A stretch of 32,000 nt of DNA from positions 570,001 through 602,000 of the forward strand of contig NZ_CP007536.1 in the NCBI RefSeq assembly GCF_000698785.1. Direction: 5' to 3'. A program made the translations under genes and the position numbers. Origin of the DNA: Nitrososphaera viennensis EN76 (GTDB lineage: Archaea > Thermoproteota > Nitrososphaeria > Nitrososphaerales > Nitrososphaeraceae). Below the pieces are notes generated by a model. It made no database searches, had not been told where the DNA came from, and worked only from the letters and a program-made list of their open reading frames with translations. Below are positions 5,040 to 28,570 of this stretch, piece by piece (the stretch's first letter is position 1; each line of letters starts with the position of its first letter).

Positions 5040-6095
5040 TCACGGCTTTGCCTCGAATACGAGATTGAATGGTGTCTGCGTAGCTCTGCGGAACTTTGAG
5101 AATCCTGCTTCCATTACTATATCTCTGGTCCTAGCCTCGCCTGCTTGAGCGCCTAATGCGGGCCCATTCTCGCTTAACGAAGATGGAACGCAGACTACTG
5201 TCGAAACAGAATAGGACAGCCTTCCCAGCGGATTCAGGTTATCCTCTACCTTGTCGTTGGCAAAGGGCTCTACTATCATCCAAGAACCATTTTTCTTCAG
5301 GGTTTGCAGCACGTGCTTGGCAGCTCCGGCAGGGTTACCCATATCGTGGAAGCAATCAAAGAACGTCACCAAGTCATAATCGTCACCGGGATAGTCTGTA
5401 GAGCCTGCAACTTCAAATGTAATATTTTTCAAGCCCTCCTTTTCTGCTTCCTGTCTGGCCCATTCAATCGATGGCCTATGGAAGTCAAAGCCTACGATTT
5501 GTGAGCTAGGGTAAGCTTTAGCCATCAGTATGGTTGAGGCACCGTGACCGCATCCTACGTCGGCAACCTTTGCACCACCATTCTTGAGCTTTGCTTCAAC
5601 AGCGTCTAACGCTGGGATCCAGCTTGAAGTAAGATTTGCAATATAGTTTGGTTTGAAGAACCTCTCTGTGCTTTGAAACAGGTAATGGTGATGGTCTCCC
5701 CATCCAAGTCCTTTACCGGTTTTGAATGCCTCGATAATCTTTTCTTCATCTTTGAAGAGTCCTGTTATTAGCTGATAGCCGCCTGCAATGTACGCCGGAC
5801 TATTCTCGTCTATCAGGGCGACGGCATGTTCTTCCGGTAGCACGTACGTCCCGGAATTAGCGTTGTATGTAACAATCCCGCCGGCAGCCTGAGCGGCAAG
5901 CCATTCTCTCATTATTCTTGGATGAGTACCGGTCTTCCTTGCCAGCTCTTCTGGCGTCAACGGTCCTGCACCGGCCATGGCTTTGAATAAGCCGAGCCTA
6001 TCACCCGCAAAGGTGAGCAAGACGCCCAGAGCCGCGCCCCATTCAGTCGCAGACTTTTCGATGAACTTGTTCAGCTTGGTCTTATCAGCTACCAT
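5040..6095 (-). CDS. class I SAM-dependent methyltransferase with an N-terminal winged-helix/dimerisation domain
   Basis: VADVGCGHGASTILMAKAYP is the SAM-binding motif I, with DLVTFFDCFHDMGNP downstream. The ORF opens at a TTG at 6128, and the first ATG is at 6095. Confidence 0.8.
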   Translation of the reverse strand: MVADKTKLNKFIEKSATEWGAALGVLLTFAGDRLGLFKAMAGAGPLTPEELARKTGTHPRIMREWLAAQAAGGIVTYNANSGTYVLPEEHAVALIDENSPAYIAGGYQLITGLFKDEEKIIEAFKTGKGLGWGDHHHYLFQSTERFFKPNYIANLTSSWIPALDAVEAKLKNGGAKVADVGCGHGASTILMAKAYPSSQIVGFDFHRPSIEWARQEAEKEGLKNITFEVAGSTDYPGDDYDLVTFFDCFHDMGNPAGAAKHVLQTLKKNGSWMIVEPFANDKVEDNLNPLGRLSYSVSTVVCVPSSLSENGPALGAQAGEARTRDIVMEAGFSKFRRATQTPFNLVFEAKP

Positions 6096-6240
6096 TTGTA
6101 TCCAAACCTCCGGAAATTCATGGAACAAAAAATTCGTTTTTTGTATTTAAGCAATTTTCCAGATCGTATCCAGATTGGATGTTAGAACTTCTTGTCTATG
6201 AACTCATTCGGTAGGCCGAACCCTCATTTTTCGAGACTCT

Positions 6241-6256
6241 AGTCCCTCTGGGCCCG
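6241..6256 (+). repeat. att-like core copy 2 (16/16 identical to the tRNA-Arg 3' end)
   Basis: AGTCCCTCTGGGCCCG, preceded by TTCGAG plus a 6-nt insertion. It lies 8 nt from the stop of the last Ehr-operon gene. Confidence 0.8.
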
Positions 6257-6263
6257 TTAAACT

Positions 6264-7094
6264 TCATGTTGCCTGCTTTTGCGGAATCCTGTCGACTGCC
6301 AGCAATAGCCCGTACAGTACCGCCTCCGGCCTTGGGGGGCAGCCGGGTATGTACACGTCGACCGGCACTATTTTGTCAATCCCGCCCGTTGTCGCGTATG
6401 TGTCTCCGAATATCCCGCCGCTGCACCCGCACGCGCCGACTGCGACCACGACTTTTGGCTCAGGTGTCGCCTCGTACGTCCTTTTCAGCGCCACTTCCAT
6501 GTTCCTTGACGCGGGGCCGGTGACGAGGAGCACGTCGGCGTGGCGTGGCGACGCGACAAAGTGGATGCCAAACCTCTCGACGTCGTAGATGGGGTTGTTG
6601 AGGGCGGTTATCTCTATCTCGCAGCCGTTGCACGAGCCGGCGTCAACTTCCCGCACCGCAAGCGACCGGCCCAGCACCTTGCCTATCTTCTGCTTCAGTT
6701 CGTTGCCTATTTTTTCAAATGATTCATTCGCAGTCGCTGTTTCGCCAAGCGATTCCACGAGCTCTTCCTTTTTCTTTGCAGGGATGGCAAACGCGCTGTC
6801 AACCTTGAACAGGGCCGGCGCCGCCTCCTCGCACCTGCCGCACAGGAAGCACTTGCCCATGTCTAGCGTTATTTTCGCCGGACCTTTTCCGTCCGCCCAT
6901 ATCTTGATCGCCTTGGACGCGCAGATCTCTTCTGCTTCCATGTAACTTTCCGGGTAAGGTGGCACGTTTGGGACGAGCGAGACCCTGCCGCGATAGCCCG
7001 GCAAGCAATGCATGTCCGATATCGGATCCTTGACGGTCTCGATGCCGTTGCCCATGATATCTTTGCTGGCGTTTGCGCGCTTTATGCCTATCAT
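6264..7094 (-). CDS. fused ferredoxin-like (HycF/NuoI-type) + NuoB/HycG-type small subunit of a group-4-hydrogenase-like (Ehr) complex
   Basis: The N-terminal half has ...EEICASKAI... and GKCFLCGRCEEAAP. The C-terminal half has GSCNGCEIE, ASPRHADVLLVTG, GACGCSGG and IPGCPPRPEA, the NuoB-type 4Fe-4S ligands. Confidence 0.85.
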   Translation of the reverse strand: MIGIKRANASKDIMGNGIETVKDPISDMHCLPGYRGRVSLVPNVPPYPESYMEAEEICASKAIKIWADGKGPAKITLDMGKCFLCGRCEEAAPALFKVDSAFAIPAKKKEELVESLGETATANESFEKIGNELKQKIGKVLGRSLAVREVDAGSCNGCEIEITALNNPIYDVERFGIHFVASPRHADVLLVTGPASRNMEVALKRTYEATPEPKVVVAVGACGCSGGIFGDTYATTGGIDKIVPVDVYIPGCPPRPEAVLYGLLLAVDRIPQKQAT

Positions 7095-8770
7095 AGGTCA
7101 TTCCCCGAGTACGAAAGATCCAGGCTCTTGTTCACCAGCGGAAAGTTCGGCACGATGTCGCTCAGCACCGCCTGCTCTATCGCCGGCCAGTTGAGAAACG
7201 ACGCCGTCCTTACCTTGTAGCGGAAAAGAGAGTCGCGGTCGCTTCCCACCATCACCCAGTGCACCGTCTGGCCCCTGTGCGATTCCGCGCAGCCCAAGGC
7301 GTGGCTGTAAGGCTCTAGCCGCTCCCGCACTTCTGCAGCGACAAGCTCGCCGTCGTGCAGTTCATTCATGACCTGGTTTATCATGCTCGCAGAATTGAGC
7401 ACCTCTTCCACCCTCACCTCAAAGCGCGACAGCGCGTCGCCCTTCCTCTTTTGCATCTCCACCTCGTACTCCATCATGCGCTGCGGCGTGTCGTGGTGCG
7501 CGTCGAGCCGGACAGAATCGTACGCCGCGTACGGGTGGTCGCGCCGGGTGTCAATGTCGATGCCGGCGCACCTTGCGGCTACCCCGACGAGCCCGAGGTC
7601 TGTCGCGACCTGCCTTGATATTATCCCGGTGTTCCGCAGCCTGTCCATCACGGACGACTTGTTACGCAGCATCGATATCACGCGCTGGAAATCTTCAAGC
7701 ACGTGGTTTGTGGTTTTTACGATCACCTGCGCCTTGTCCTCCAGGTCGACGCCGACCCCGCCCACTCTGTTGACTCCGAACAGCAGCCGGCTCCCGGTCA
7801 CCTGCCCGTTCAGCTGCATCATCCTCTCCTTGAGTATGTTAAGGCGCGCCGCGCCGTAGGCAAACCCGACGTCGGTCGACATGCCTGCAAGCGTGCCAAG
7901 GTGGTTGTAAATCCTCTCAAGTTCCGCGCAGGCAGTCCTTGTCGCAAGCGCCTTTTTGGGCACCTTGGCCCTTGCTATCTTCTCCAGCGCCTGGCAGTAC
8001 GCCGTCGAGTTTGCAACTGCCTCGTCACCGGCTATCCGCTCGCTCAGGAGCAGGACCTGGTCAAGAGTCATGCCCTCGGCGAGCTTTTCCGTGCCCTTGT
8101 GCGTGTAGAAAAGGCGCGTCTCGAGGTTAACGATATTCTCGCCAAGGACGCTGAACCGGAAATGCCCCGGCTCTATTATGCCGGCGTGCACAGGGCCAAC
8201 AGGTATTTCGCATATCCCTTCGCCCTCCACCTTTGCAAACCGATACTGCGAGCCATTTGTCCTGCCGGCCTTTGTTCCAGCGGCAAAGTCCTTCCGGAGC
8301 GGATGTACGCCCGCTGGCCACTGCTCGTGCAGCACAAGCGGCCGGGTGTCCGGGTTTCCTTCAGGCACAAGTCCAAACATGTCTTTTATCTCCCTTTCAT
8401 ACAGCGCCGCCGGCGGGATGCGTGAAGAGATGCTTGGAAAGGACGGGGGCGTTCCGGGCTCCGCGTCGTCCTTTATCCCCGCGGTCGCCACGATAAACAC
8501 GTCCTCGCCGTTTTCCTTTGCAAAGACGTACCTGAGCACAAAGCCCCGGCCGGCCTGCCGCTCGTCGCTGCACACCACCGTCGCAAGCCTCGCTTTCAAG
8601 TCGTCGTTTATGCAGTAGCACGCGTCCGGGATGTCCTGCTTGCCTGCGAGAACGACATGGACCTCGTTGCCGTTGAGCACGTAAACAGACCTTGCCTTTC
8701 CGCCCATCCTGCGCAGGATTTCCGTCTTGCATTTTGCAGCGCTGGAATGCTCTACTCCTGCCGACATCAT
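7091..8770 (-). CDS. fused NuoC-NuoD / HycE-type large subunit lacking all four Ni-Fe cysteine ligands
   Basis: IPVGPVHAGIIEPGHFRF is the family signature. ERIAGDEAVANSTAY sits where hydrogenases have ERxCGxCxxxHSxAY. The C-terminus DLSYSGNDL sits where they have DPCxxCxxR. Confidence 0.9.
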   Translation of the reverse strand: MMSAGVEHSSAAKCKTEILRRMGGKARSVYVLNGNEVHVVLAGKQDIPDACYCINDDLKARLATVVCSDERQAGRGFVLRYVFAKENGEDVFIVATAGIKDDAEPGTPPSFPSISSRIPPAALYEREIKDMFGLVPEGNPDTRPLVLHEQWPAGVHPLRKDFAAGTKAGRTNGSQYRFAKVEGEGICEIPVGPVHAGIIEPGHFRFSVLGENIVNLETRLFYTHKGTEKLAEGMTLDQVLLLSERIAGDEAVANSTAYCQALEKIARAKVPKKALATRTACAELERIYNHLGTLAGMSTDVGFAYGAARLNILKERMMQLNGQVTGSRLLFGVNRVGGVGVDLEDKAQVIVKTTNHVLEDFQRVISMLRNKSSVMDRLRNTGIISRQVATDLGLVGVAARCAGIDIDTRRDHPYAAYDSVRLDAHHDTPQRMMEYEVEMQKRKGDALSRFEVRVEEVLNSASMINQVMNELHDGELVAAEVRERLEPYSHALGCAESHRGQTVHWVMVGSDRDSLFRYKVRTASFLNWPAIEQAVLSDIVPNFPLVNKSLDLSYSGNDL

Positions 8771-10297
8771 CTAGCCTGCGGCACCTCCTGTCGTCTGGAA
8801 GACTGCCATGACGTCGTTGGCAAGCGCCTGCAGAGGCTCGGGTATGTAGAATCCAAGCATCACCACGAGCGCGGCCAGGACGAGCATCGGCACGACGGCG
8901 AGCTTGCCCGTGCCGTGCATGGCGGCGTCTTCAGGCATCCTTTTGCCCGGCTCTTTCGGGGCGCCAAAGACCATCCTTACTGTGTGCTTCATAAAGCCGG
9001 CAAATATCACCACTAAAAACGCGATGACAAGCGCGGCAGCGAGGAACTGCCCCGCCCCAAAGCCTGCGCTCAGTATGAGAAACTCGCTTGCAAAGACGTT
9101 GAACGGCGGCATGCCCACTATGGCAAGGCCGCCTATCAGGAACAGGGCGCCCGTCACGGGCATGACCCTTATGATGCCCCGGATCTCGGACATGGCCTTT
9201 GTCTCGTACCTGTGGCTTATCGTGCCGCTGGCAAAGAACATGAGCGGCTTGGCGACTGCGTGGTTTATGATGTGCAAGAGCGCGCCATATATGCCGGCAA
9301 ACCCGCCAAAGCCCATGGCAAGCGCGACGATGCCCATGTGCTCGACGCTGGAATATGCCAGCATGCGCTTCATGTCCTTCTGGAAGTACATCGACGCGGC
9401 CGCGATGCCGACTGACACGACGCCGAGGATTATCATGAGCTGGCTTGGGAACTCGGGCCCCAGAGTTCCTGACGATATTATGTGGAACCGCAGTATGCCG
9501 TATATCGAGCAGTTCAGTAGCACGCCGGAGAGGAGCGCGCTCACCGGCGTGGGGGCCTCGCTGTGCGCGTCCGGCAGCCAGGTATGCATCGGCGCAAGGC
9601 CGGCCTTTGTGCCAAATCCTATCAGGACAAAGATGAACGCAATCTTGACGATGTTCGGGTCAAGCAACTTGGAGTTGGCGACCATGTCCGTCCAGTTCAT
9701 GGCGGAGTCCGGCTCGGCAGAAGTCGCGTTTGCGTTGGTGTAGTAAAAGAACACGGTGCCAAAGAGCGCAAACGACAGGCCGACGGTCGCGATTATCAGG
9801 TACTTCCACGCCGCCTCGATGGCGCTCTCCTTCGTGTAGAGCATTATCAGGAGCACCGAGACGAGGGTCGTGGCCTCTATTGCCACCCACATGGCGCCCA
9901 TATTGTTTGACAGCGGGACGAACAGCATCGTCAGCAAAAAGACGTTGAAGCCCTGGTAATACCGGATGATGCGCCTGTCGTCTACCAGGCCCCGCTCGTA
10001 CTGCTTGCCCATATAGTCCACAGAGTAAATGGCAGACATGCAGCCGACGCCGGCTACGGGGAGCAGCACCAGCGCCCCAAAGGCGTCAAGGTAGAAAAGC
10101 TCGTCAAAGGTAGTTATCTTTTTTTCAGAGATGACGCCTGCCACCAGCGCAGCTGCCTGCACGAGCACCAGGGCCGCAGAGGCCACGGTGGCCATCTCTG
10201 CCACCTTCTTCTTGCGAAAGAGCGTGGGCGCAAGCGCGCCGGCTACGGGCGTCAGGAGCATAGAAATTATCAGTGCACTAGACTCTGCTGCCGCCAT
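8771..10297 (-). CDS. antiporter-like membrane subunit (HyfF / NuoM-N / MrpD family)
   Basis: 508-aa polytopic protein with GFGTKAGLAPMHTWLPDAHSEAP, the hallmark of the family. Abuts the large-subunit gene. Confidence 0.85.
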   Translation of the reverse strand: MAAAESSALIISMLLTPVAGALAPTLFRKKKVAEMATVASAALVLVQAAALVAGVISEKKITTFDELFYLDAFGALVLLPVAGVGCMSAIYSVDYMGKQYERGLVDDRRIIRYYQGFNVFLLTMLFVPLSNNMGAMWVAIEATTLVSVLLIMLYTKESAIEAAWKYLIIATVGLSFALFGTVFFYYTNANATSAEPDSAMNWTDMVANSKLLDPNIVKIAFIFVLIGFGTKAGLAPMHTWLPDAHSEAPTPVSALLSGVLLNCSIYGILRFHIISSGTLGPEFPSQLMIILGVVSVGIAAASMYFQKDMKRMLAYSSVEHMGIVALAMGFGGFAGIYGALLHIINHAVAKPLMFFASGTISHRYETKAMSEIRGIIRVMPVTGALFLIGGLAIVGMPPFNVFASEFLILSAGFGAGQFLAAALVIAFLVVIFAGFMKHTVRMVFGAPKEPGKRMPEDAAMHGTGKLAVVPMLVLAALVVMLGFYIPEPLQALANDVMAVFQTTGGAAG

Positions 10298-10298
10298 G

Positions 10299-10973
10299 CT
10301 AGTCGTCCCTCAGCTTCTCCAGGCTGCCGATGTCCAGCGTGTCAAACGTCTGGCTTATCCTGAACAGCAGTATCGCAGAGATTATGACGCCGACGAGGAT
10401 GTCTGCAAATATCCCTATCTCTATTATCAGCGAGACGCCGTGTGTGAGCGCGGTCGTAAACAGGAAGAGCCCGTTTTCGATTATCAGAAGACCGACCACC
10501 TGGTTCAGCGCCATCCTCCTGCTCACCATGACAAACAGGCCTATGAAGAACAGCGAAACAGACACGGGCAGGTACGTCATTGCCACCCTGTCGAGGTTCG
10601 GCGTCTGGAGCATCTGCTGCGTCAGGGCGTACGAGAGCGCCACGAGGAGCGCAGATATGAGGATTGACATGCGCAGGCCGACGTACGGGTTGGTCTCTAT
10701 CTTGAACTCGTCTTTGATCTTTTTCGTGACCCGCAACAGCACGCGCGGTATCACCACGGCCTTTACCACTAGCGTGAGGGCCGCAACGACATAGATCTCC
10801 CACACGCCGGTAAAGTACGCTATCACCGCGGTGACAGCGGCGAGGACTATGGTCTGGTAGCGATAGGCGCTCAGCCAGTCTGCAAAGCCCCTCCTCACGA
10901 CGACGCCGAATGTCGCTATCAGCAGGCCTGCCGACGAGATTGTCAATATGTCAACCGGCGGCATCATCTCCAC
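10299..10973 (-). CDS. HyfE-like small membrane subunit
   Basis: 224 aa, about 7 TM helices, LLIIENGLFLF motif. GTG start preceded by GAGGAGGAGGTG at 7-nt spacing. Confidence 0.8.
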   Translation of the reverse strand: MEMMPPVDILTISSAGLLIATFGVVVRRGFADWLSAYRYQTIVLAAVTAVIAYFTGVWEIYVVAALTLVVKAVVIPRVLLRVTKKIKDEFKIETNPYVGLRMSILISALLVALSYALTQQMLQTPNLDRVAMTYLPVSVSLFFIGLFVMVSRRMALNQVVGLLIIENGLFLFTTALTHGVSLIIEIGIFADILVGVIISAILLFRISQTFDTLDIGSLEKLRDD

Positions 10974-10995
10974 TGCTACACACCTCCTCCTCTTT

Positions 10996-11940
10996 TCATA
11001 GGTAGTAAAAGATCACTCCCACCATAGAGCTCGCTATTGCCATCACGAGCAAGTCCGGCACGCGGAACAGGCGCCACTTGGCCACCCTCGTCTCCACGTA
11101 CGCTACCAGCATTGCAAGGAGGACGACCTTTGCCAGGAACGCGCCTGCGCCCGCCGCGACTGCCGAGCCGGCATCCAGGCTTGCGGGCATGCCCGCAGGG
11201 ATGAACAGGTTCACCAAGAGCGCCAGAAGTATCATCTGCTTTATCGACTGCGACCACTGGACCATCGCAAGGCTCTTGCCGGAATATTCCAGCACCATCG
11301 CCTCGTGGACCATCGTAAGCTCTAGGTGCGTCGCAGGGTTGTCAAACGGGAGCCTGCCGGTCTCTGCAAGCGTGACTATGAAAAATGCTATCAGGGCAAA
11401 GAGCATGCTTGGCGCCGTGGCAAAGCCGGCCGACCGCGCCGCCGCTCCGACAAGGCTTGACAGGTTCGTTCCTCCCAGCGTGAGCGACACCACGAATATC
11501 GACAGGAACAGCGCCGGCTCGGCAAGCGATGATATCATCATCTCCCGGCTCGTGCCAAGGCCGCTGAACGCGCTTGCGACGTCAAGCCCCGCAAGCATCG
11601 TGAAGAACCTTGCAAGGCCAAACAGCCCGAGCACTACCAGCACGTCGCCGACTGCCCCAAATGGGCTGAAGGGCACAAACGCAGGCACGAACAGCGCCGC
11701 GGTTACCGTCGCGGCCATCATCACCCACGGCGCGCAGCGGAACACCCACGAGCTCTGGTCTGAGACCACCTCGTCTTTTTTCATCAGCTTGGACAGGTCG
11801 TAGTACGGCTGGAGCACGCTTGCACCCACCCTCTTTTGCGTCCTTGCCTTCACCTTCCTCATGACGCCCGTCAAGAGCGGGGCAAGCGCCACGATGGCGG
11901 CTGCCTGCGCCGCGCCGACAGCCACCGAAGAGGCGTCCAT
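10996..11940 (-). CDS. NuoH / HycD (HyfC)-type membrane subunit
   Basis: 314 aa. RKVKARTQKRVGASVLQPYYDLSKLMKKD and PFDNPATHLELTMVHEAMVLEYSG are NuoH-family motifs. Confidence 0.85.
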   Translation of the reverse strand: MDASSVAVGAAQAAAIVALAPLLTGVMRKVKARTQKRVGASVLQPYYDLSKLMKKDEVVSDQSSWVFRCAPWVMMAATVTAALFVPAFVPFSPFGAVGDVLVVLGLFGLARFFTMLAGLDVASAFSGLGTSREMMISSLAEPALFLSIFVVSLTLGGTNLSSLVGAAARSAGFATAPSMLFALIAFFIVTLAETGRLPFDNPATHLELTMVHEAMVLEYSGKSLAMVQWSQSIKQMILLALLVNLFIPAGMPASLDAGSAVAAGAGAFLAKVVLLAMLVAYVETRVAKWRLFRVPDLLVMAIASSMVGVIFYYL

Positions 11941-14006
11941 CAGGGCACCAGCCTTGCCAGCAGCAAAAGGAGTGCAAGAGCTATCATCACGTATAGCAGG
12001 TACGCGTTGACCTTGCCCGTCTGTATACGACGCACCTTGTCGAAAAACGCCACGGTCGCGCTGACCGTGTGCGAGTACAGCCCTTCTTCAAAGACGTCCC
12101 GAGTTTCAGACTCTACGCGCGCCGATTTGACGGCGTACGGGTTTGACGCAGAGTGCCGGTCCTTTGTGACGCTCATGCGCGGCCTGTAGAGCGCCCGAAA
12201 GACGGTGCGGATGGGCTGCGAAAGCGAGCCGGCCGTATACTGCATCCGCGCGTCCAGCGCGCCAAAGCCGCAGTCCCACGTGCCGTACAGCCGCCTCTTG
12301 GTACTGCGCGAGCCTGCGGCAAATGCAAAGCCAATGATTGCCGCCGCCACAGCGCCCATCATTATTGCTATAGCAGGCATGGACAAATTGCTCAACGCCT
12401 CGCCGGCGCGGTACGGCACGGCAAGCGCGTCAAACGGCGACACGCTGAACTGCTGCGGGTCCAGCTCAAACGAAGCGGCCATCATCCCGGTCGCTACAAA
12501 GGGCAGGACGCCAAAGACCACGCACAGCGCCGCGGCTATTCCCATGCCGGCTATCATGGTCTTGGGCGCTTCCTTTGCATGCGCGGCTGCTTCCGAGCGA
12601 GGGCGGGACAGGAAAGTGATGCCAAACATCTTGACAAAAGTGGCAAGCGCTATCCCTGCCGTGAGCGCAAACGCGATGCTCGCAAAGCTGATGGATATTT
12701 GCAGGGCGGTGTTTGGCACCTGGTACGAAGAAAGCAGGGCCTGCATAGTGAGCCACTCGCTCACAAAGCCGTTGAGGGGAGGCAGGCCCGAGATGGCTAT
12801 TGCGCCGACAAGGAAGAGGAGCGCCGTCTGAGGCATCTTTTTTGCCAGCCCGCCCAGCTGCTCCATGTCCTTTGTGTGCGTGCGAAAGAGTATAGAGCCG
12901 GCGCCCATGAAAAGCAGGCTCTTGAAGGCGGCATGGTTGAGCGAGTGGTACATTGCTGCCAAGAGCGCCACCGCCGCAAGGGCCTGCAGGCCAAACGACG
13001 CAAAGGTGACAGAAAGCCCGAGGCCGAGCACGACTATGCCGATGTTTTCTATGGTGCTGTAGGCAAGGGCGCGCTTGATGTCTTTTTCAATGGCGGCATA
13101 GAGCACGCCAATGAGCGCGGACACGGAACCGGCGACGACCATTAGCATGCCCCACCACGCCGAGTCTGGTGAGCCGGGCACCGCAAAGTCAAGCGTGGTG
13201 CGCACGAGGCCATAGATCGCGACCTTTACCATGACTGCGGACATTAGCGCGGACACGTTGCTTGGGGCCGACGGGTGCGCCTGTGGGAGCCAGACGTGCA
13301 TGGGCACGAGGCCGGCCTTTGTGCCAAAGCCGATAAACGCAAGTACGAAAGCGACGTCCTTTATGTACGGGGGCATGGGCGACGCAGGGTCCCTGAAAGA
13401 GTCGAATGACAGGCTGCCAGTATGGAAGTACATCGCAAGGAACGAGCCGGTGATAAACGCCGTGCCAAGGTGAGTCATCACGATGTAGGTCATGCCGGCC
13501 TTGATGTTGCCTTCATTGTCGTGCTCGTAGATGACAAGGAAGAACGACGCAAGCGACATCGCCTCCCAAAAGACCAGGAACGAAAACGCGCTGTCCGACG
13601 CGGTGACCAGGAACATGGAAAGGACAAAGAGGTTGAACAGAAAGCCAAGCGCCCTCTTGCTGCGCTTTTCAGAATATTCGCCTACATAGCCGATGGAGTA
13701 TATCGAGGCTGCGAAAGCGACCGGCCCAATGATTAGCATGAAAAACGCCGCCACGCCATCTACGTGAAACTCGATGCTCAGTGCAGGAACGGGGGCGGCA
13801 AACAGCGGGGAGATGTCAAGCGGCAAGCCAGAAATGGCCACAGAAGCAGACAGCGCGACTATCAGGACCGACCCAAGGGCTGGCGGGGCAAAAGACAGGA
13901 TAGCAGATTTCCTGCCATCCCGGAAGGCAAGCGGCAAGAGCGCGCCGGCTACGAACGAAAGCACGGCCGCTTGAAATAGAGTTGAGTAACCATCTCCAAA
14001 AACCAT
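11940..14006 (-). CDS. antiporter-like membrane subunit (HyfB/HycC / NuoL family)
   Basis: 688-aa polytopic protein with GFGTKAGLVPMHVWLPQAHPSAP. First gene of the operon; its stop overlaps the next start by 1 nt. Confidence 0.85.
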   Translation of the reverse strand: MVFGDGYSTLFQAAVLSFVAGALLPLAFRDGRKSAILSFAPPALGSVLIVALSASVAISGLPLDISPLFAAPVPALSIEFHVDGVAAFFMLIIGPVAFAASIYSIGYVGEYSEKRSKRALGFLFNLFVLSMFLVTASDSAFSFLVFWEAMSLASFFLVIYEHDNEGNIKAGMTYIVMTHLGTAFITGSFLAMYFHTGSLSFDSFRDPASPMPPYIKDVAFVLAFIGFGTKAGLVPMHVWLPQAHPSAPSNVSALMSAVMVKVAIYGLVRTTLDFAVPGSPDSAWWGMLMVVAGSVSALIGVLYAAIEKDIKRALAYSTIENIGIVVLGLGLSVTFASFGLQALAAVALLAAMYHSLNHAAFKSLLFMGAGSILFRTHTKDMEQLGGLAKKMPQTALLFLVGAIAISGLPPLNGFVSEWLTMQALLSSYQVPNTALQISISFASIAFALTAGIALATFVKMFGITFLSRPRSEAAAHAKEAPKTMIAGMGIAAALCVVFGVLPFVATGMMAASFELDPQQFSVSPFDALAVPYRAGEALSNLSMPAIAIMMGAVAAAIIGFAFAAGSRSTKRRLYGTWDCGFGALDARMQYTAGSLSQPIRTVFRALYRPRMSVTKDRHSASNPYAVKSARVESETRDVFEEGLYSHTVSATVAFFDKVRRIQTGKVNAYLLYVMIALALLLLLARLVP

Positions 14007-23652: not shown

Positions 23653-24459
23653 CTATTCCGAAATTCCGTGGAACCACTTGTTGTTGATGGCCTGCAGGGT
23701 GCCGTCGTCGCGCATGCTGTCAAGCGCCACGTCAAATGCTTTTGTCAGTTCCGATCCTTTTGGAAAGATGAATCCCAGTTCTTCTTTGGCAGTCAAAGGC
23801 TCACCTGCAGCTATCTTTACCTTGTCTGCATCCTTTCCCACATAGCCCTGGCCTGCCACGTCGTCCATCACCACCGCGTCCACATCTCCTGCGACAAGCG
23901 CCCGCACGGTTTCAGGGAACGTCCTGTACGCAACCAGCCGATCGCTTTCCACAAGGCCGGCAGCAACGTCATAGTTGGTCGTTTGTGACTGCACGCCCAC
24001 CTTCAGGCCGGCGGCAGAGGCAAGCTCTTCTGCGTTGCTAAAGCGGTCTTCTCCGGCCCGCACCAGAAGCACCTGCTGCAGGGTAAGGTAGCCCTGCGAA
24101 AAGTCCACCAGCTGGGCGCGCTCTGGCTTGATGGTGATGCCATCGGCGGCCATGTCGTACTCGCCTTTTGCGACCGCGGTTATCATGCCGTCCCAGCCGG
24201 CCTGCACGAATTCCGGCTTGCAGTCAAGCAGCTTGCAGATTTCGCCCACGGCGTCATAGTCCCACCCTGCTGCCTGGCCCGTCTCATCGTCTACAAAGTT
24301 GAACGGGATGTAGGCGTTTTCAACCGCCACTCTGACAGTCCGGCCGCCCAGGTCTGGCAGGCGCTCCGAGGCAAGCATGCCAGAGGGCAAGCCGGCGAGC
24401 AGTGCCGCAGACAAGAGCCCCAGTCCCAGGAAGATCCAGAGTTTTGCATCACCCTTCAT
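23653..24459 (-). CDS. secreted substrate-binding protein, family 3 (polar amino-acid type PBP2)
   Basis: Signal [64 protein letters not shown] and VDFSQGY are family motifs. The ORF opens at a GTG at 24519, and the ATG at 24459 is preferred. Confidence 0.8.
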
Positions 24460-24704
24460 ATAGACACACCATAATCGAGATTCACGACGATCGTATCGCA
24501 GTATCGCACACACATACACTTACTTAAGGATGTTTTTGTCGCCATGTGTATGCGCAGAAAGGCCGCCGCAGCCAAGCAATACAACGGCAAAACATAGATC
24601 TGCATATCCTTGGTGCCAAGGAATGCTTAAGAAAAATAAAGGAAGAAGTGGCGAGTTATTGTCGCCTATCATTCTTCCGTTGTTTGGACGATCTTGTCAG
24701 CGAA

Positions 24705-25130
24705 TCAAGACAGGGTCAAGTGAACTGCTGGCAACTTGATAGAGAGAGCCGCAGAGTCCTTGTATCCTGACCAGTCGTGGCCGTTCTTGTCGTCATCGTC
24801 GCAGTTGTTGTCGTCATCATCATCGCCATTGTATGATGTACTCTTGTAGTAGTAGTAGTCATGGCCGTTCTTGTCGTCGTCATCATCATCATCATTGTTG
24901 CATTCGCAGTTGTTGTCGTCGTCGTCCTCGTCATCGTCCTTGCTGTAGCTTGACCACTTGTAGTCGTGGCCATTATTGTCGTCGTCACAATTGTCGTCAC
25001 CATTCTTGTCGTCGTAGCTAGAGCTTGCAAATGCAGCAGCCGGCATTGCTATTGCCGATGATGCAATTGCGAGTCCCAAAGCCAACAGGGCAAGAATGAA
25101 CATCTTACCGTTTCCTGTTACACTTGACAT
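24705..25130 (-). CDS. secreted, extremely Asp-rich protein with KNGHD(Y/W) repeats and 4 Cys (novel, paralog 1)
   Basis: Signal MSSVTGNGKMFILALLALGLAIASSAIAMPAAAFA. The mature part is about one third Asp with a C...CxC...C pattern. A TATA box lies 23 nt upstream of the ATG at 25130 (the ORF track starts one codon earlier at a TTG). Confidence 0.7.
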   Translation of the reverse strand: MSSVTGNGKMFILALLALGLAIASSAIAMPAAAFASSSYDDKNGDDNCDDDNNGHDYKWSSYSKDDDEDDDDNNCECNNDDDDDDDKNGHDYYYYKSTSYNGDDDDDNNCDDDDKNGHDWSGYKDSAALSIKLPAVHLTLS

Positions 25131-25152
25131 CAAACCGGTCGCACCATCATAC

Positions 25153-25160
25153 TTTTAAAG
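25153..25160 (-). promoter_or_regulatory. TATA box (CTTTAAAA on the minus strand) of Asp-rich gene 1
   Basis: 23 nt from the ATG. It lies in a 21-nt block, 20/21 identical to the block upstream of the paralog and at identical spacing. Confidence 0.5.
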
Positions 25161-25410
25161 GCTTGAGCAAAATCAGTTCATAACAATATCATCTTGAAAA
25201 TTTAAGGTATAATCGACGCATTCCTTGATAATCCTATAAAGAGACAATCTGTAAAATTCTATATTCAAGCAGGAGACACTGCTGCCTGCAAGGATCAGAA
25301 ATTCTAGGATCCAATTTGAGAAAAAATTTGAGAAAAAAGAGGAAGGGAGGCTGTGTTATTGCAGCCTGGCTTCCCATGCTGTGGGATTATCTGCGATAGT
25401 CGGTGTTATC

Positions 25411-25920
25411 TCAGTCCTTCTTCCAGTAGTCGTGGTTGTAGTGGTTGTCGTGGTTGTCGTCGTCATCGCATTTGTCGTCGTCATCGTCGTCATCGTCGTC
25501 ATGGTCGTCGTTGTTGTAGGATGTGTACTTGTAGTTCTCCCAGTTGCCGTTATAGCTTGACGAGTGATAGTCGTTCTTGTCGTCATCGTTCTTGTCATCG
25601 TCGTCGTCATCACAGTAGCAGTTGTTCTTGTCATCATAGTTGTTGTTCTTGTCGTCGTCATGGTTGTCATTGTTCTTGTCATCATAGTTGTTGTTCTTGT
25701 CGTCGTCATGGTTGTCGTCATCGCATTTGTCGTCGTCATCGTCATCGTCATCGTCGTCATGGTCGTGGTTGTTGTAGTAGTACTTGTCGTCATGGTTGTC
25801 GTCATCGTCATTGCCACCGGCGAATGCAGCCGGCACTGCTGTTACCGACGATGCAATTGCGAACCCCACAGCCAACACGGCCAGAAGGAACGCCAATTTG
25901 TTTCCTGTTAGACTTGACAT
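25411..25920 (-). CDS. secreted, extremely Asp/Asn/His/Tyr-rich protein with 4 Cys (novel, paralog 2)
   Basis: Signal MSSLTGNKLAFLLAVLAVGFAIASSVTAVPAAFA. The mature part is about 44% Asp by hand count (59/135), with D9-D10 runs, a C...CYC...C pattern and an internal 16-aa tandem repeat. Confidence 0.7.
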   Translation of the reverse strand: MSSLTGNKLAFLLAVLAVGFAIASSVTAVPAAFAGGNDDDDNHDDKYYYNNHDHDDDDDDDDDDKCDDDNHDDDKNNNYDDKNNDNHDDDKNNNYDDKNNCYCDDDDDDKNDDDKNDYHSSSYNGNWENYKYTSYNNDDHDDDDDDDDDKCDDDDNHDNHYNHDYWKKD

Positions 25921-25942
25921 TAATAGACTCTCGTTGTCAAGG

Positions 25943-25950
25943 TTTTAAAG
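25943..25950 (-). promoter_or_regulatory. TATA box (CTTTAAAA on the minus strand) of Asp-rich gene 2
   Basis: 23 nt from the ATG at 25920, the same register as the paralog. Confidence 0.5.
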
Positions 25951-26115
25951 TCTTGAGCAAAAATAATAGATAATGAATTTATCTTGAAAATCCAAGCTAG
26001 ACTATACATGTTATTTGGTAATTCTATATCGCTAAGATACATAATTTCTATACTTGCACTCAATGCTAGCAGCTTCCCCATTTTTAGGCAGTAGACATTT
26101 TTACAGAACAGGATC

Positions 26116-27316: not shown

Positions 27317-28570
27317 ATGTTCAGCCAAAAAAAATACACAATACTGGCCACCATAGTCGGCCTCGCAATCTTAAGCGCGGTCGCGGTGCCAGCATTGATA
27401 GCAAGCAATGCGGCAGCACAAATCACCACTACCGCCCCCCAGCCAGAACAGGGTGCTGCAGAGCAGACCACGACGACAACGACAGGTGACAACAGCTTTT
27501 CGTCGTCTGTGAACATATCACCGACGGCAGACTCTAACGCAAAAGTCACCATCGAAGGCACCGGGTTGACTGCCAGGGAGATGAACGTCAACCAGGAAAG
27601 GCAAGACGACGGCACGGTCAAGATCACGGTCGAAGGAGTATTTGCAGTCGGAGAAGAAGAAGAGGGAGCCACACCAGAAGCACCCTCAGAAGAGACTCCA
27701 GGCACACCAGAGCAGACAGGCAACGAGACAATACCAACATTCCCTCCATCCCCATCAGGAAATGAAACAACGCCTTCAGGCAACGAGACGTCAACAACAC
27801 CTACCACGCCACCAGAGAATGAAACATCGACGGCACCACCAACGCTGGCACCCCTGGCAGGAGTGACGCCAAGCAGCGGTGCGGCTGGCGACCAAGTCAC
27901 CATCGACGGAAGTGGCTTTGCTCCCAACCAGGCGCTGACCTTTAGCTTTGACGGCTCCAACCTCGATGCAGGCAGCGCGACCACAGACAGCGCAGGCACA
28001 TTCTCCACAACAGCAAACATACCAGCTGACGCCACAGCCGGCGACCACGAGATAATGGTTACTGACGGCACAGGCGCAAGCACGACAGCAACATTCACCG
28101 TAGAAGGATCCGCAACCGCAGAACAGACGGGCAACGAGACGTCAACAACAACAATACCCTCGGGAAATGAAACATCAACAACAACGGCTCCAATCCCCTC
28201 AGGCAATGAGACATCCAGCGGCAACGCAACGTCAGGCGGCACTCCACCGCTTGGCACTGCATCCATGCAGGTGACTCCAACATCTTCCAATGCAGGAGGT
28301 CAGGTAACCGTTGACGGCACGGGCTTTGGTACCAACCAGGTCATTACGCTGACCATGGACGGCACAGTGCTCGAATCCGCTGACGGAACCGACATAACAA
28401 CGGATGGCAATGGCGGATTCTCTGCCACCGTAACCCTCCCTGCAGACGCGACGAGCGGCGACCACCAGCTCACTGCGTCGGACATCAGTGGTGCCACGGC
28501 ATCAGCCACTCTCACAGTAGCCGAAGCGGCAACATCACCACTGCTACCACCACCCCCAACAACCCCGTGA
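27317..28570 (+). CDS. secreted cell-surface glycoprotein with two Ig-like (IPT/TIG-like) repeats and GNET sequon linkers
   Basis: Signal MFSQKKYTILATIVGLAILSAVAVPALIASNAAAQ. Two repeats of about 80 aa (VTPSSGAAGDQVTIDGSGF... and VTPTSSNAGGQVTVDGTGF...). At least 9 N-x-S/T sequons, mostly GNET(S/T). Confidence 0.8.
   Translation: MFSQKKYTILATIVGLAILSAVAVPALIASNAAAQITTTAPQPEQGAAEQTTTTTTGDNSFSSSVNISPTADSNAKVTIEGTGLTAREMNVNQERQDDGTVKITVEGVFAVGEEEEGATPEAPSEETPGTPEQTGNETIPTFPPSPSGNETTPSGNETSTTPTTPPENETSTAPPTLAPLAGVTPSSGAAGDQVTIDGSGFAPNQALTFSFDGSNLDAGSATTDSAGTFSTTANIPADATAGDHEIMVTDGTGASTTATFTVEGSATAEQTGNETSTTTIPSGNETSTTTAPIPSGNETSSGNATSGGTPPLGTASMQVTPTSSNAGGQVTVDGTGFGTNQVITLTMDGTVLESADGTDITTDGNGGFSATVTLPADATSGDHQLTASDISGATASATLTVAEAATSPLLPPPPTTP

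Follow-up and report, generated by a model that had tools for sequence, protein, structure and literature searches.

A tandem pair of aspartate-rich, exported-type proteins in Nitrososphaera viennensis as candidate extracellular metal-cation buffers

Acidic biomineralisation proteins such as Aspein, Asprich and the coral acid-rich proteins combine a signal peptide with a disordered, Asp-rich chain containing runs of Asp, evolve in a composition-preserving manner, and bind cations and minerals with high capacity; the Asp-rich matrix proteins of shells and corals act on mineral surfaces. PcoE/SilE, the ZnuA loop, ZrgA, the DmeF loop, the UreE/SlyD tails and Hpn are small, exported or exposed, disordered low-complexity chains, and PcoE/SilE and the His-rich tails and loops bind several transition-metal ions. 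The Cys-flanked DxDxDG loops of thrombospondin type-3 repeats need Ca2+ in order to fold and are held together by disulfides, calsequestrin-type Ca2+ buffers, of low affinity and high capacity, are polyanions that store many cations in an extracytoplasmic compartment, and metallothioneins carry CxC/CC clusters in a small low-complexity chain. Here we compare with these systems two neighbouring minus-strand genes, par1 and par2, of the soil ammonia-oxidising archaeon Nitrososphaera viennensis, which lie within the 32,000-nucleotide stretch of the EN76 genome that was analysed (the window; contig NZ_CP007536.1, positions 570,001 to 602,000).

A sequence-only reading had placed two adjacent minus-strand genes within 24705-25920, and both ORFs are confirmed there, at 24705-25130 and 25411-25920 (Table 1). 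Exact protein matching and gene order identify them as NVIE_007250 (par1) and NVIE_007260 (par2), annotated in the source as exported proteins with unknown function; the exact par2 protein is on CP103305.1, and the main texts of the literature name neither locus. For par1 the ATG start was chosen, the mechanical ORF list beginning one codon upstream at a TTG (25133). A substrate-binding protein (SBP) gene is a neighbour of the pair, and a gene for a cupredoxin-like/wHTH membrane protein stays syntenic with it.

Table 1. Features of the par1-par2 locus, in window coordinates
Feature	Position	Strand	Description
par1 coding sequence	24705-25130	-	141 aa, ATG start; NVIE_007250 / UniProt A0A060HE62 by gene order
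par1 signal peptide	25026-25130	-	35 aa, MSSVTGNGKMFILALLALGLAIASSAIAMPAAAFA; Lys-bearing n-region, hydrophobic core, A-F-A cleavage-type site
par1 C-terminal non-acidic tail	24705-24758	-	DSAALSIKLPAVHLTLS plus stop; conserved in orthologue
par1 promoter	25153-25238	-	BRE/TATA-like TGCTCAAGCCTTTAAAA 25153-25169; boxes ATTTTCAAGAT 25191-25201, TATAGGATTATCAA 25225-25238
par1 3' hairpin	24631-24678	-	GGAAG...GGCGA-loop-TCGCC...CTTCC then T-run; terminator-like
par2 coding sequence	25411-25920	-	169 aa; NVIE_007260 / UniProt A0A060HI32 by gene order
par2 signal peptide	25819-25920	-	34 aa, MSSLTGNKLAFLLAVLAVGFAIASSVTAVPAAFA
par2 internal tandem duplication	25569-25716	-	48-nt (16-codon) unit, 3.0 copies, 86% matches, NHDDDKNNNYDDKNN units
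par2 promoter	25943-26028	-	TGCTCAAGACTTTAAAA 25943-25959; boxes ATTTTCAAGAT 25981-25991, TATAGAATTACCAA 26015-26028
par2 3' hairpin	25330-25375	-	GGGAAG..CAGGCTG-loop-CAGCCT..CTTCC then TTTTTT; terminator-like

The extreme composition claimed for the pair holds on recounting. Mature par2 contains 59 Asp among 135 residues (43.7%, against the claimed 44%), with 26 Asn (19%), 13 Tyr, 12 Lys, 10 His and 4 Cys but neither aliphatic residues nor Pro, and the expected D10 and D9 runs occupy residues 55-64 and 141-149 of the full-length protein; in mature par1, 34 of 106 residues are Asp (32.1%, close to the claimed third). Hydrophobic residues are nearly absent from both mature parts, which are without a hydrophobic core, His makes up 4-7% and Cys 3-4%, and the net charge is about -28 for par1 and about -48 for par2. 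The C...CxC...C order is common to the pair (mature positions 13/40/42/75 and 32/67/69/117, respectively) and SYNG is found in both proteins. Three KNGHD(Y/W) units had been read in par1; all three NGHD(Y/W) cores are there, but Lys precedes only two of them (NNGHDY, KNGHDY, KNGHDW). Three repeats make up mature par1, each following the pattern S-S/T-Y ... D-run-NN-C-D-run-(K/N)NGHD-Y/W. The internal duplication of par2 (TRF score 194) is absent from its orthologue, where it appears as a gap in the alignment with par2 of the L003 genome. N-glycosylation was rejected as a conserved feature, N-x-S/T sequons numbering zero in either window protein.

The signal peptides, described earlier as near-identical, both occur exactly as quoted and are of the Sec type. 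Class I peptides were defined by a positive n-region, an h-region made up of 10-20 hydrophobic positions and a small residue at both -3 and -1, without twin Arg or a lipobox Cys; on a reading of the sequences, par1 and par2 both have the n-region, the h-region and the A-x-A site, and neither has a twin Arg or a lipobox Cys. In par2 the parts are MSSLTGNK, LAFLLAVLAVGFAIASSV and TAVPAAFA, with cleavage before GG, and the predicted mature N-termini are GGNDDDDNHDDK (GGNDDDD...) for par2 and SSSYDDK... for par1.

AlphaFold2, run on par1 with a four-sequence alignment, returned a pLDDT of 43.6 and a pTM of 0.11, with no secondary structure outside the signal helix. Because AlphaFold2 gives no structure, the statement that these proteins are not structureless holds only at the level of short motifs. 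Both products combine a signal peptide, more than 30% acidic residues (32% and 43.7% Asp) and no predicted structure (AlphaFold2, on par1), as do the acidic intrinsically disordered cation-binding proteins, which form a functional class and not a homology family.

The likeness to each described system is accompanied by differences. The acidic biomineralisation proteins are eukaryotic and sequence-unrelated, and the archaeal family adds regular His, Tyr/Trp and Cys motifs and His/Cys-rich members; a literature search for Asp-rich analogues returned biomineralisation proteins only, and Nitrososphaera is not known to form mineralised structures. PcoE/SilE use Met/His motifs of the MxxH type, whereas Asp/Asn, not His, prevail in the window proteins, whose mature chains are without Met; with no Pfam or NCBIfam match either, membership in PcoE/SilE was rejected. 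Par1 carries three C-D-run-NGHD units, whose C-D-D-D-x-N-G-H-D pattern resembles the Cys-flanked loops of thrombospondin type-3 repeats, but the loop Gly is lost in par2, the Cys number varies, and TSP_3, Excalibur and EF-hand gave no Pfam match to par1, par2 or three relatives at E <= 0.01 or E <= 10. Calsequestrin has a thioredoxin-like fold to which an acidic tail is attached, and neither sequence nor predicted structure relates it to the pair. Metallothioneins are cytosolic, whereas the window proteins are of exported type and predicted to reach an oxidising compartment. Taking as criteria a Cys content of roughly 15-30% in CxC/CC/CxxC clusters, a cytosolic location and a profile match, we rejected a metallothionein assignment, since Cys amounts to 3.8% in par1 and 3.0% in par2, each has one CxC and an export signal, and Pfam gave no match; only short relatives reach 14-17% Cys.

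Profile searches of Pfam (E <= 0.01 and E <= 10), NCBIfam (E <= 1) and the PDB returned nothing above noise, the best PDB match being a compositional one to the acidic hinge protein of complex III (E = 0.25). The pair is thus without a Pfam, NCBIfam or PDB relative, in agreement with the claim that it belongs to no characterised family. One relative, P0010, was automatically named "Zn2+ transport system substrate-binding protein" by JGI. Tested against the ZnuA fold (Pfam PF01297 / NCBIfam PRK09545), this assignment was rejected: ZnuA scores reach at most 8.9 bits, where the cut-off is 268, and only for the His-rich stretch of another relative, P0013. The JGI name reflects a compositional match. 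Below threshold, the short relatives P0010 and P0013 resemble in composition the His-rich metal-binding segments of ZnuA, ZrgA, DmeF, UreE and SlyD.

Each gene has its own promoter. The element TGCTCAAG(C/A)CTTTAAAA has just two matches in the window, where 0.23 would be expected; they lie at 25153-25169 and 25943-25959, both at a distance of 22 nt from the ATG that follows. A TATAG(A/G)ATTA(C/T)CAA box is common to both promoters at 25225-25238 and 26015-26028. These shared boxes bear out the conserved promoter noted earlier, and the same architecture lies 5' of most family members. The position of the BRE/TATA-like element, 22 nt before the par1 ATG, implies a leaderless mRNA; par1 and par2 form two separate transcription units, probably both leaderless. 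The 3' hairpin of par1 (terminator-like site 24650-24666) has an MFE of -16.6 kcal/mol (z = -2.2) and that of par2 an MFE of -19.1 kcal/mol (z = -3.3), with none of 200 shuffles equally stable; the counterparts in L003 use other inner stems (z = -3.6 and -4.8, respectively).

These signals bear on whether the ORFs are merely non-functional low-complexity frames, translated or not, arising from GAC/GAT repeat DNA. Trinucleotide-biased DNA does yield long ORFs in several frames here (25353-25973 on the plus strand, 25356-25817 and 24716-25030 on the minus strand), which we rejected as repeat artefacts without start or signal context, and neither protein is among the part of the BN-PAGE membrane proteome entries examined, where the neighbouring SBP is listed. 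On the other hand, the par1/par2 frame is the only one in which a conserved promoter precedes a start codon and a signal peptide is encoded, the mixture of GAC/GAT with other codons argues against a pure repeat, orthologues keep frame, stop and short motifs with synonymous changes, and both genes are transcribed, one of them in a regulated manner. This explanation is largely refuted and extremely improbable. Par1 and par2 are real genes, not spurious repeat ORFs, because they have their own promoters and terminators, orthologous tandem pairs with synonymous changes, and transcripts in two data sets.

The orthologous pairs were found in two other Nitrososphaera genomes, L003, where the locus is syntenic, and L019. 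The par1 orthologue is P0001 on L003 and the par2 orthologue lies at L003:9311-9733; par1 and par2 are 50-55% identical to them with whole-unit indels (par1 about 55% over the whole protein), whereas neighbouring genes are 76-100% identical. The signal peptides match at 27 of 35 (par1) and 25 of 34 positions (par2). In 29 signal-peptide codons of par2, 9 changes are synonymous and 9 non-synonymous; the last 25 codons of the par1 tail differ by 6 synonymous and 4 conservative changes. The tandem duplication, present in three genomes, is old and has been retained. BLASTP with composition correction gave no significant match between the mature parts of par1 and par2 (E = 1.6); their paralogy follows from the agreement of signal peptide, promoter plus 5' DNA, and family profile.

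Relatives were sought in libraries of 1.8 and 5.8 billion proteins, where the family amounts to 12-14 clusters, all traceable ones from Nitrososphaera-type archaea. When the family alignment was used to look for degenerate-peptide loci in species genomes, 600 patterns matched but tblastn confirmed none of them, the query being too low in complexity; related loci were found instead by a promoter-plus-start DNA pattern. On these sequences the family is tiny, fast-evolving, uncharacterised and restricted to Nitrososphaera-type archaea. The signal peptide (in all members), the promoter and the short motifs NG[HK]D[YW], CxC and SY are conserved, while the mature remainder evolves by indels and tandem duplication. 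NG[HK]D occurs 14 times against 0.7 expected, and none of 1000 composition-preserving shuffles reaches 14, a test that overstates independence because the family sequences are related; for [DN]x[DN]x[DN]G the 15 mature domains give a count of 17, where shuffles give 8.6 +/- 2.8. These 15 domains consist almost wholly of D, N, H, Y, K, G, C, S, W, E and T, their net charges ranging from -5 to -48, and the positional orthologue P0007 has a different sequence in the same residue alphabet. What selection preserves, on these comparisons, is the composition and the short motifs, not the sequence. The ordered four-Cys pattern stands for the window pair but is no family invariant, members having 2, 3, 4, 6, 7 or 8 Cys; a fixed two-disulfide topology (C1-C2, C3-C4) was accordingly rejected as a family feature, and no fixed disulfide fold is defined.

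Secreted competitive or signalling peptides, such as toxins, RiPP-like products or antimicrobial peptides, in which a conserved leader precedes a hypervariable core containing Cys, would also suit three of the features: conservation is far stronger in the signal peptide and promoter than in the mature part, genomes carry several divergent copies at dispersed sites (a single metagenome bin supplied both P0005 and P0010), and some members are short (60-80 aa; P0010 has 76). We consider this very improbable, given that maturation, immunity or export genes are absent nearby in the contexts examined, that strongly anionic, hydrophobic-free chains are unlike membrane-active toxins, and that divergence proceeds by low-complexity slippage and not by diversifying point substitution.

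The same features bear on a role at mineral surfaces, in which the Asp-rich chains would adsorb to carbonate, phosphate or oxide in soil and either aid attachment or steer CaCO3 dissolution/precipitation, neutralising the acid from ammonia oxidation. The composition is of the acidic biomineralisation type (32-44% Asp, signal peptide, disorder), evolution is fast and composition-preserving, and the family is restricted to soil Nitrososphaera. The relatives, however, lose Asp and gain His and Cys, as in HDHHHHDH, HGHGHGH, HEHGHDHG and CDCSCDCCD (the last in P0010, P0015 and P0017), a shift that fits soluble transition-metal ligation better than crystal-face binding, and carbonate or Ca genes appear in no context examined, so that a mineral-surface role seems unlikely.

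Both ORFs are transcribed in two published RNA-seq data sets, as the sequence-only reading required of genuine genes. Under Cu limitation, NVIE_007250 rises from a log2 RPKM of 6.92 to 8.33 (log2FC +1.58, ~3-fold; padj 5e-22), while NVIE_007260 (8.19/8.38; padj 0.011) fails the authors' cut-off of 0.01. In that experiment 784 of 3180 detected genes (24.7%) went up, and the Cu-limited cultures also grew more slowly; the Cu response of the pair is modest and unspecific. The published Cu-up promoter motif TTCSGSMTTTGWACYANT has no match in the window with up to 3 mismatches allowed. In the second data set, baseMean values are 49.7 for par1, 652.6 for par2 and 522.1 for the neighbouring SBP gene. 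A biofilm data set skips both genes.

The substantial, steady expression of par2 (log2 RPKM about 8.2-8.4; baseMean above that of the SBP gene), together with the very high negative charge density and the His content, would suit an electrostatic role in the envelope, where fixed or trapped polyanions under the S-layer could concentrate NH4+ by a Donnan effect or buffer protons through Asp/His. That charged surface layers of ammonia-oxidising archaea concentrate ammonium is an established idea. It is mentioned in the abstract of PMC12153357. Yet such a role does not account for the motifs that are conserved (Cys/CxC, Tyr/Trp and NG[HK]D) or for the His/Cys-rich relatives, and the family, with its 12-14 clusters, is missing from most ammonia-oxidising archaea, though all face the same NH4+/H+ problem; we regard it as improbable.

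We propose, at somewhat less than even confidence and from the sequences, that par1 and par2 are high-capacity exported metal-cation sponges or buffers, with transition metals as the likelier cargo. Cleavage after A-F-A would free a 106-residue (par1) or 135-residue (par2) polyanion, which is predicted to end under the S-layer or in the medium. Dense Asp carboxylates together with [N/G]-H-D-[Y/W/H] and Cys/CxC sites may bind multivalent cations with high capacity and modest affinity; if so, the chains would capture or hold metals near the cell as an extracellular sponge. The relevant cargo would be Cu2+/Zn2+, with Ca2+/Mg2+ as bulk counter-ions. Transition metals are favoured because of the family trend from Asp-rich to His/Cys-rich members and the neighbourhoods of some relatives: one adjoins a multicopper oxidase gene (L018), one a tyrosinase-domain gene (L026), and one has ZnuABC and a NikR-like gene in its vicinity (L035). 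Further, weak pointers to metals are the sub-threshold matches to metal-binding segments, the JGI name of P0010, the excess of [DN]x[DN]x[DN]G motifs, the rise of NVIE_007250 under Cu limitation and the syntenic cupredoxin-like/wHTH gene. Against the proposal count the low His and Cys shares of the window proteins themselves, the modest Cu response, the missing Cu-up motif and the absence of both proteins from the BN-PAGE entries examined. The family also shows no consistent link to a transporter or receptor, and several relatives' contexts are uninformative. Since any polyanion binds cations, binding in vitro would be insufficient to establish the physiological role.

The first two neighbourhoods, in which the relative lies directly downstream, could also mark partners of secreted copper oxidases, either a "caddie"-type helper passing Cu to tyrosinase or multicopper oxidases, or a Tyr-rich substrate that these enzymes oxidise or cross-link into an extracellular matrix. 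In all but three of the mature domains Tyr accounts for 6-16% of the residues, frequently in clusters (YYYY, YYY), and multicopper oxidases are the most Cu-limitation-induced genes of N. viennensis. Against this, no oxidase is adjacent to the window pair or to its L003, L019 and L034 counterparts, short His/Cys-rich members have little or no Tyr (0% in P0010), and the genes adjacent to the relatives have separate promoters; because of these separate promoters and the many Cu proteins in the genomes of ammonia-oxidising archaea, the two adjacencies may be due to chance, and partnership with copper oxidases is decidedly doubtful.

A bolder version of the sponge reading, which we consider quite unlikely, is that the family acts as a ribosomally made, secreted "protein metallophore" that would strip Cu (or Zn) from soil minerals and organic complexes and hold it at the cell surface. 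The held Cu would then serve copper-dependent ammonia oxidation and the secreted Cu oxidases, and the dedicated promoter with repeated TCAAG boxes might answer to NVIE_007310, a neighbouring, putative membrane-tethered cupredoxin-like/wHTH sensor. If true, archaea would have in this family a protein-based equivalent of the chalkophores and zincophores of bacteria.

Ammonia-oxidising archaea are heavily copper-dependent, and it is an open question how soil lineages take up and buffer copper (Reyes et al. 2020, PMC7785015). NVIE_007250 and NVIE_007260 are concrete, easily expressed small candidates for extracellular metal handling whose transcript data are known, and in this lineage-restricted family the cassette of promoter and signal peptide is better conserved than the cargo it carries. 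Should the bound ion turn out to be Ca2+, or the role an electrostatic one, the family would still provide a rare case among prokaryotes of the compositional extreme seen in shell and coral matrices.

The two signal-peptide-like sequences quoted in the sequence-only reading are the N-termini of the par1 and par2 ORFs, neighbouring genes for Asp-rich proteins of exported type, and exact counts uphold the Asp contents of about 44% and one third estimated there. The mature chain of par2 (that after the signal peptide) holds 59 Asp in 135 aa (43.7%), together with 26 Asn, 13 Tyr, 12 Lys, 10 His and 4 Cys and zero Ala, Val, Leu, Ile, Met, Phe or Pro; that of par1 holds 34 Asp in 106 aa (32.1%). The D10 and D9 runs of par2 are present, as are the Cys order C...CxC...C and the SYNG motif in both proteins; of the three KNGHD(Y/W) units ascribed to par1, all three NGHD(Y/W) cores exist, but Lys precedes only two. 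The layout of par1 is three repeat units, S-S/T-Y ... D-run-NN-C-D-run-(K/N)NGHD-aromatic, and then a non-acidic tail, DSAALSIKLPAVHLTLS. The GAC/GAT-rich DNA also yields, as by-products, long ORFs in the remaining frames and on the opposite strand. For par1, AlphaFold2 (mean pLDDT 43.6, pTM 0.11) yielded no secondary structure except the signal helix, an output that fits a chain either intrinsically disordered or folding only around ligands.

Coordinates of the features discussed (window positions unless a locus from another genome or metagenome contig is named)
Feature	Location	Strand	Details
par1 ORF	24705-25130	-	141 aa from ATG
par1 non-acidic C-terminal tail	24705-24758	-	L003 counterpart 10298-10351
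par2 ORF	25411-25920	-	169 aa
Family promoters	25943-26028, 25153-25238		also L003, L004, L019, L024, L026, L021, L034
NVIE_007240, family-3 solute-binding protein	23653-24459	-	SBP_bac_3, E = 9.5e-38
NVIE_007300, exported 417-aa protein	27317-28570	+	
NVIE_007310-like protein, 524-546 aa	28641-30281	-	orthologues L003:5232-6827, L034:4990-6576
G+C-rich block	~6000-14000		
Flanks of relative P0005	L032:6661-7317 and 8434-9009		also L033
Relative P0010, 76 aa	L036:8001-8231		
Relative with inserted module	L021:532-1509	-	326 aa
Cassette with unrelated mature part	L012:433-765		Nitrososphaera sp. SMAG_U1858

CP103305.1 (NCBI, a 2.52-Mb chromosome) encodes the exact par2 protein, flanked there by the genes that flank it in the window, in the order PNPOx-like protein, ABC exporter pair, alpha/beta hydrolase, FkbM methyltransferase, beta-lactamase-domain protein, 174-aa protein, family-3 solute-binding protein, par1, par2, cupredoxin-domain exported protein, Bmp protein and histidine kinase. 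The window order matches NVIE_007130 ... NVIE_007400 in the listed part of the Nitrososphaera viennensis tables of Reyes et al. 2020 (PMC7785015, Dataset S1), and the 268-aa length of NVIE_007240 in another data set agrees with the window gene; by order and length, rather than by deposited sequences, par1 is thus NVIE_007250 (UniProt A0A060HE62) and par2 NVIE_007260 (A0A060HI32), both annotated in that table part as 'exported protein of unknown function' (PMC7785015). Both genes are transcribed, with log2 RPKM values there of 6.92 (replete) and 8.33 (Cu-limited) for par1 and 8.19 and 8.38 for par2 (Reyes et al., PMC7785015), and baseMean values of 49.7 and 652.6, respectively, in an independent 2026 data set. 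Cu limitation raised NVIE_007250 3-fold (log2FC 1.58, padj 5e-22), one of 5 values >1.5 among the ~100 genes in the listed part of the table, in an experiment in which 24.7% of detected genes went up, par2 fell below the cut-off and Cu-limited cultures were harvested on day 13 vs day 5 (PMC7785015). A search of the window for the published Cu-up promoter motif found no copy. Very acidic peptides are poorly visible in standard tryptic, positive-mode proteomics; we found no detection of either protein, including in the listed part of a BN-PAGE membrane proteome table.

The sequence-only observation of the two genes is confirmed. Orthologous tandem pairs with the signal architecture occur at the same place on L003, a JGI metagenome contig from a related genome (P0001, the 116-aa par1 orthologue, and a 140-aa par2 orthologue ending in HYWKKD); a further tandem pair adds a third genome (L019; also L011, of Nitrososphaera sp. 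SMAG_U1858). Transcription and homologues with the signal architecture, whose absence the sequence-only reading named as refuting, are thus both present. Compared with their L003 counterparts, neighbouring proteins of the window are 76-100% identical, whereas par1 and par2 reach 50-55%, with whole units deleted or inserted; their signal peptides keep 25-27 identical residues of 34-35 (9 synonymous and 9 non-synonymous changes in 29 signal-peptide codons of par2). A 48-nt x3 tandem duplication (86% matches) lies inside par2 and is missing from its orthologue. The protein P0007 of L034, which occupies the orthologous position and shares the 114-aa and cupredoxin/wHTH neighbours, differs from the window proteins in sequence and uses the same residue alphabet. 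The fast unit-wise divergence, the kept signal peptides and this alphabet together argue for selection on export, composition and short motifs. par1 orthologues also end in a conserved 17-residue tail, DSAALSIKLP(A/G)VHL(T/S)LS, retained in P0001 as DSAALSIKLPGVHLSLS and lacking in par2; with 6 synonymous vs 4 non-synonymous changes in 25 codons, the tail, judged from sequence, is under purifying selection, and possible roles are a docking strand or a sorting signal.

Searches of Pfam, NCBIfam and PDB returned no relatives, in agreement with the earlier statement that no characterised family was recognised. Profile searches yielded 12 family proteins among 1.84 billion representative proteins and 14 matches among 5.8 billion clusters, and scanning species genomes and metagenomes for the promoter pattern brought in a few further members; all traceable sources are Nitrososphaera-type, among them Ca. 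N. evergladensis, which has a degenerate copy of 77 aa. All members have an N-terminus of the form MSSLTxxK-hydrophobic-(M/V)P(T/A/H)(A/V)AFA, and their mature parts, of net charge -5 to -48, consist almost only of D, N, H, Y, K, G, C, S, W, E and T. Short motifs exceed shuffled expectation (NG[HK]D, 14 vs 0.7; HD[YWH], 19 vs 5.3; SY[NSGD], 18 vs 6.9), although the sequences are related, so these counts overstate independence. Cys number is 2, 3, 4, 6, 7 or 8 (0 in one truncated fragment); the ordered four-Cys pattern therefore stands as a feature of the par1/par2 lineage but not as a family-defining fold. In L021 and in the second, minus-strand gene of the L019 pair, a probably helical Trp/His-rich module, VRQWLxDHxDxCSDNHIYxWIxKH..KW...WIVxHFQWV, is inserted between signal peptide and acidic low-complexity part; the L019 copy is apparently frameshifted in its signal peptide, which may reflect an assembly error or a pseudogene.

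The conserved promoter proposed for the pair is borne out: TGCTCAAG(C/A)CTTTAAAA sits 22 nt before each ATG, these being its only matches in the window (2 vs 0.23 expected), and both promoters share ATTTTCAAGAT and TATAG(A/G)ATTA(C/T)CAA farther upstream. The usual archaeal TATA-to-start distance places transcription start about this far downstream of TATA; read as BRE/TATA, the spacing would put the start at or adjacent to the ATG, so that the mRNAs would be leaderless. Downstream of each stop codon lie a hairpin (outer stem GGAAG...CTTCC) and then a T-run; hairpin stability exceeds that of shuffles, with z = -3.3 for par2 and -2.2 for par1, and the orthologous L003 hairpins keep the structure with different inner stems; par1 and par2 are two independent transcription units. 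Conservation of the family promoters exceeds that of the proteins. T(g/t)(t/c)TCAAG-like boxes recur at about -105, -62 and -35 (inside BRE/TATA) and on the start codon (ATGTCAAGT), which suggests a dedicated regulator and, at the level of DNA or RNA, constraint on the first codons (MSS). The L012 gene and P0012 carry the family promoter and an MSSLTG...AFA signal peptide before mature parts that are unrelated and abound in N-x-T/S sequons (GNATQGGNMTQGGNAT...), so different exported cargoes share a promoter-plus-signal cassette.

Among the surrounding genes, the NVIE_007310-like gene is syntenic with the Asp-rich genes (Cu limitation log2FC +0.88 in the listed table part). Its product begins with a signal or anchor sequence, followed by a cupredoxin-like domain (residues 53-150) that by eye lacks the usual C-terminal Cys/His/Met ligand set, a long extracytoplasmic region, a single transmembrane helix at about residue 430 and, at the C-terminus, a MarR-type winged helix; this architecture resembles that of a one-component transcription factor tethered to the membrane, with its sensor domain outside. 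NVIE_007240 immediately follows par1 in the same orientation, a position kept in L003, and has 7 peptides in the listed part of the membrane-fraction proteome; no matching amino-acid permease or ATPase gene occurs in the surrounding window. NVIE_007300 combines Thr/Pro/GNET-rich linkers dense in N-x-S/T sequons with two Ig-like repeats (weak MG2/MalQ_N matches) and, like the Asp-rich pair, evolves fast (53% identity to L003 vs 76-100% for neighbours). The G+C-rich block (0.55-0.61 vs 0.43-0.53 in most of the remaining window), with long minus-strand ORFs, corresponds by the listed part of the published gene order to NVIE_007050-007100, an NADH-quinone-oxidoreductase / hydrogenase-4-like membrane complex, several of whose genes are down under Cu limitation in the same part. 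Around the relative P0005, a DUF6448 protein (E = 4.8e-57) lies upstream and a 191-aa gene of no assigned family, which may be co-transcribed, 26 nt downstream, in an identical arrangement on two independent contigs (L032, L033).

Aspein/Asprich-type matrix proteins and calsequestrin-like buffers (acidic disordered cation-binding proteins) and PcoE/SilE, the ZnuA loop, Hpn and SlyD/UreE tails (periplasmic metal sponges or His-rich metal tails) resemble the family in likely function. PcoE/SilE, however, use Met/His motifs, whereas Met is absent from both mature chains; the C-D-D-D-x-N-G-H-D units recall the Cys-flanked DxDxDG calcium loops of thrombospondin type-3 repeats, but the loop Gly is lost in par2; and metallothionein has far more Cys. 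All profile tests for membership in these systems failed; the family belongs to none of them and is best regarded as a new sequence family, restricted to its lineage, of known functional kind. The 76-aa His/Asp/Cys-rich exported peptide P0010, named 'ABC-type Zn2+ transport system substrate-binding protein/surface adhesin' by JGI, is mis-annotated, since its composition resembles the ZnuA His-rich loop.

A chain that carries a carboxylate at every 2-3 positions and lacks a hydrophobic core would, on physical grounds, bind multivalent cations. As cargo we lean toward transition metals on points that are each weak: some relatives swap Asp for His and Cys (GGDHRDDHDHHHHDHDDD..., HGDHGCGDHGHGHGHW..., HDHGDSCDDNGHEHGHDHGDSC...CDCSCDCCD) and match by composition, below threshold, specifically the His-rich segments that bind metal in DmeF, ZrgA, ZnuA, UreE and SlyD, and JGI auto-named one of them a Zn2+-binding protein; NVIE_007250 rises under Cu limitation; one relative directly follows a multicopper oxidase gene, another a tyrosinase-domain gene, and one sits near ZnuABC with a NikR-like gene; and the window pair is syntenic with the cupredoxin-like/wHTH membrane protein. 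Against this leaning count the breadth of the Cu response, the later Cu-limited harvest, par2's place below the cut-off, the missing Cu-up motif and proteomic detection, and the uninformative contexts of several relatives. The interpretation offered earlier is plausible and partly supported, while the metal binding at its centre is putative; a metal sponge or buffer has a little less than an even chance, and mineral-surface, electrostatic, oxidase-partner and secreted-peptide readings share the rest. The most novel version, in which the proteins would be secreted as metallophores to supply the copper economy of ammonia oxidation, is unlikely.
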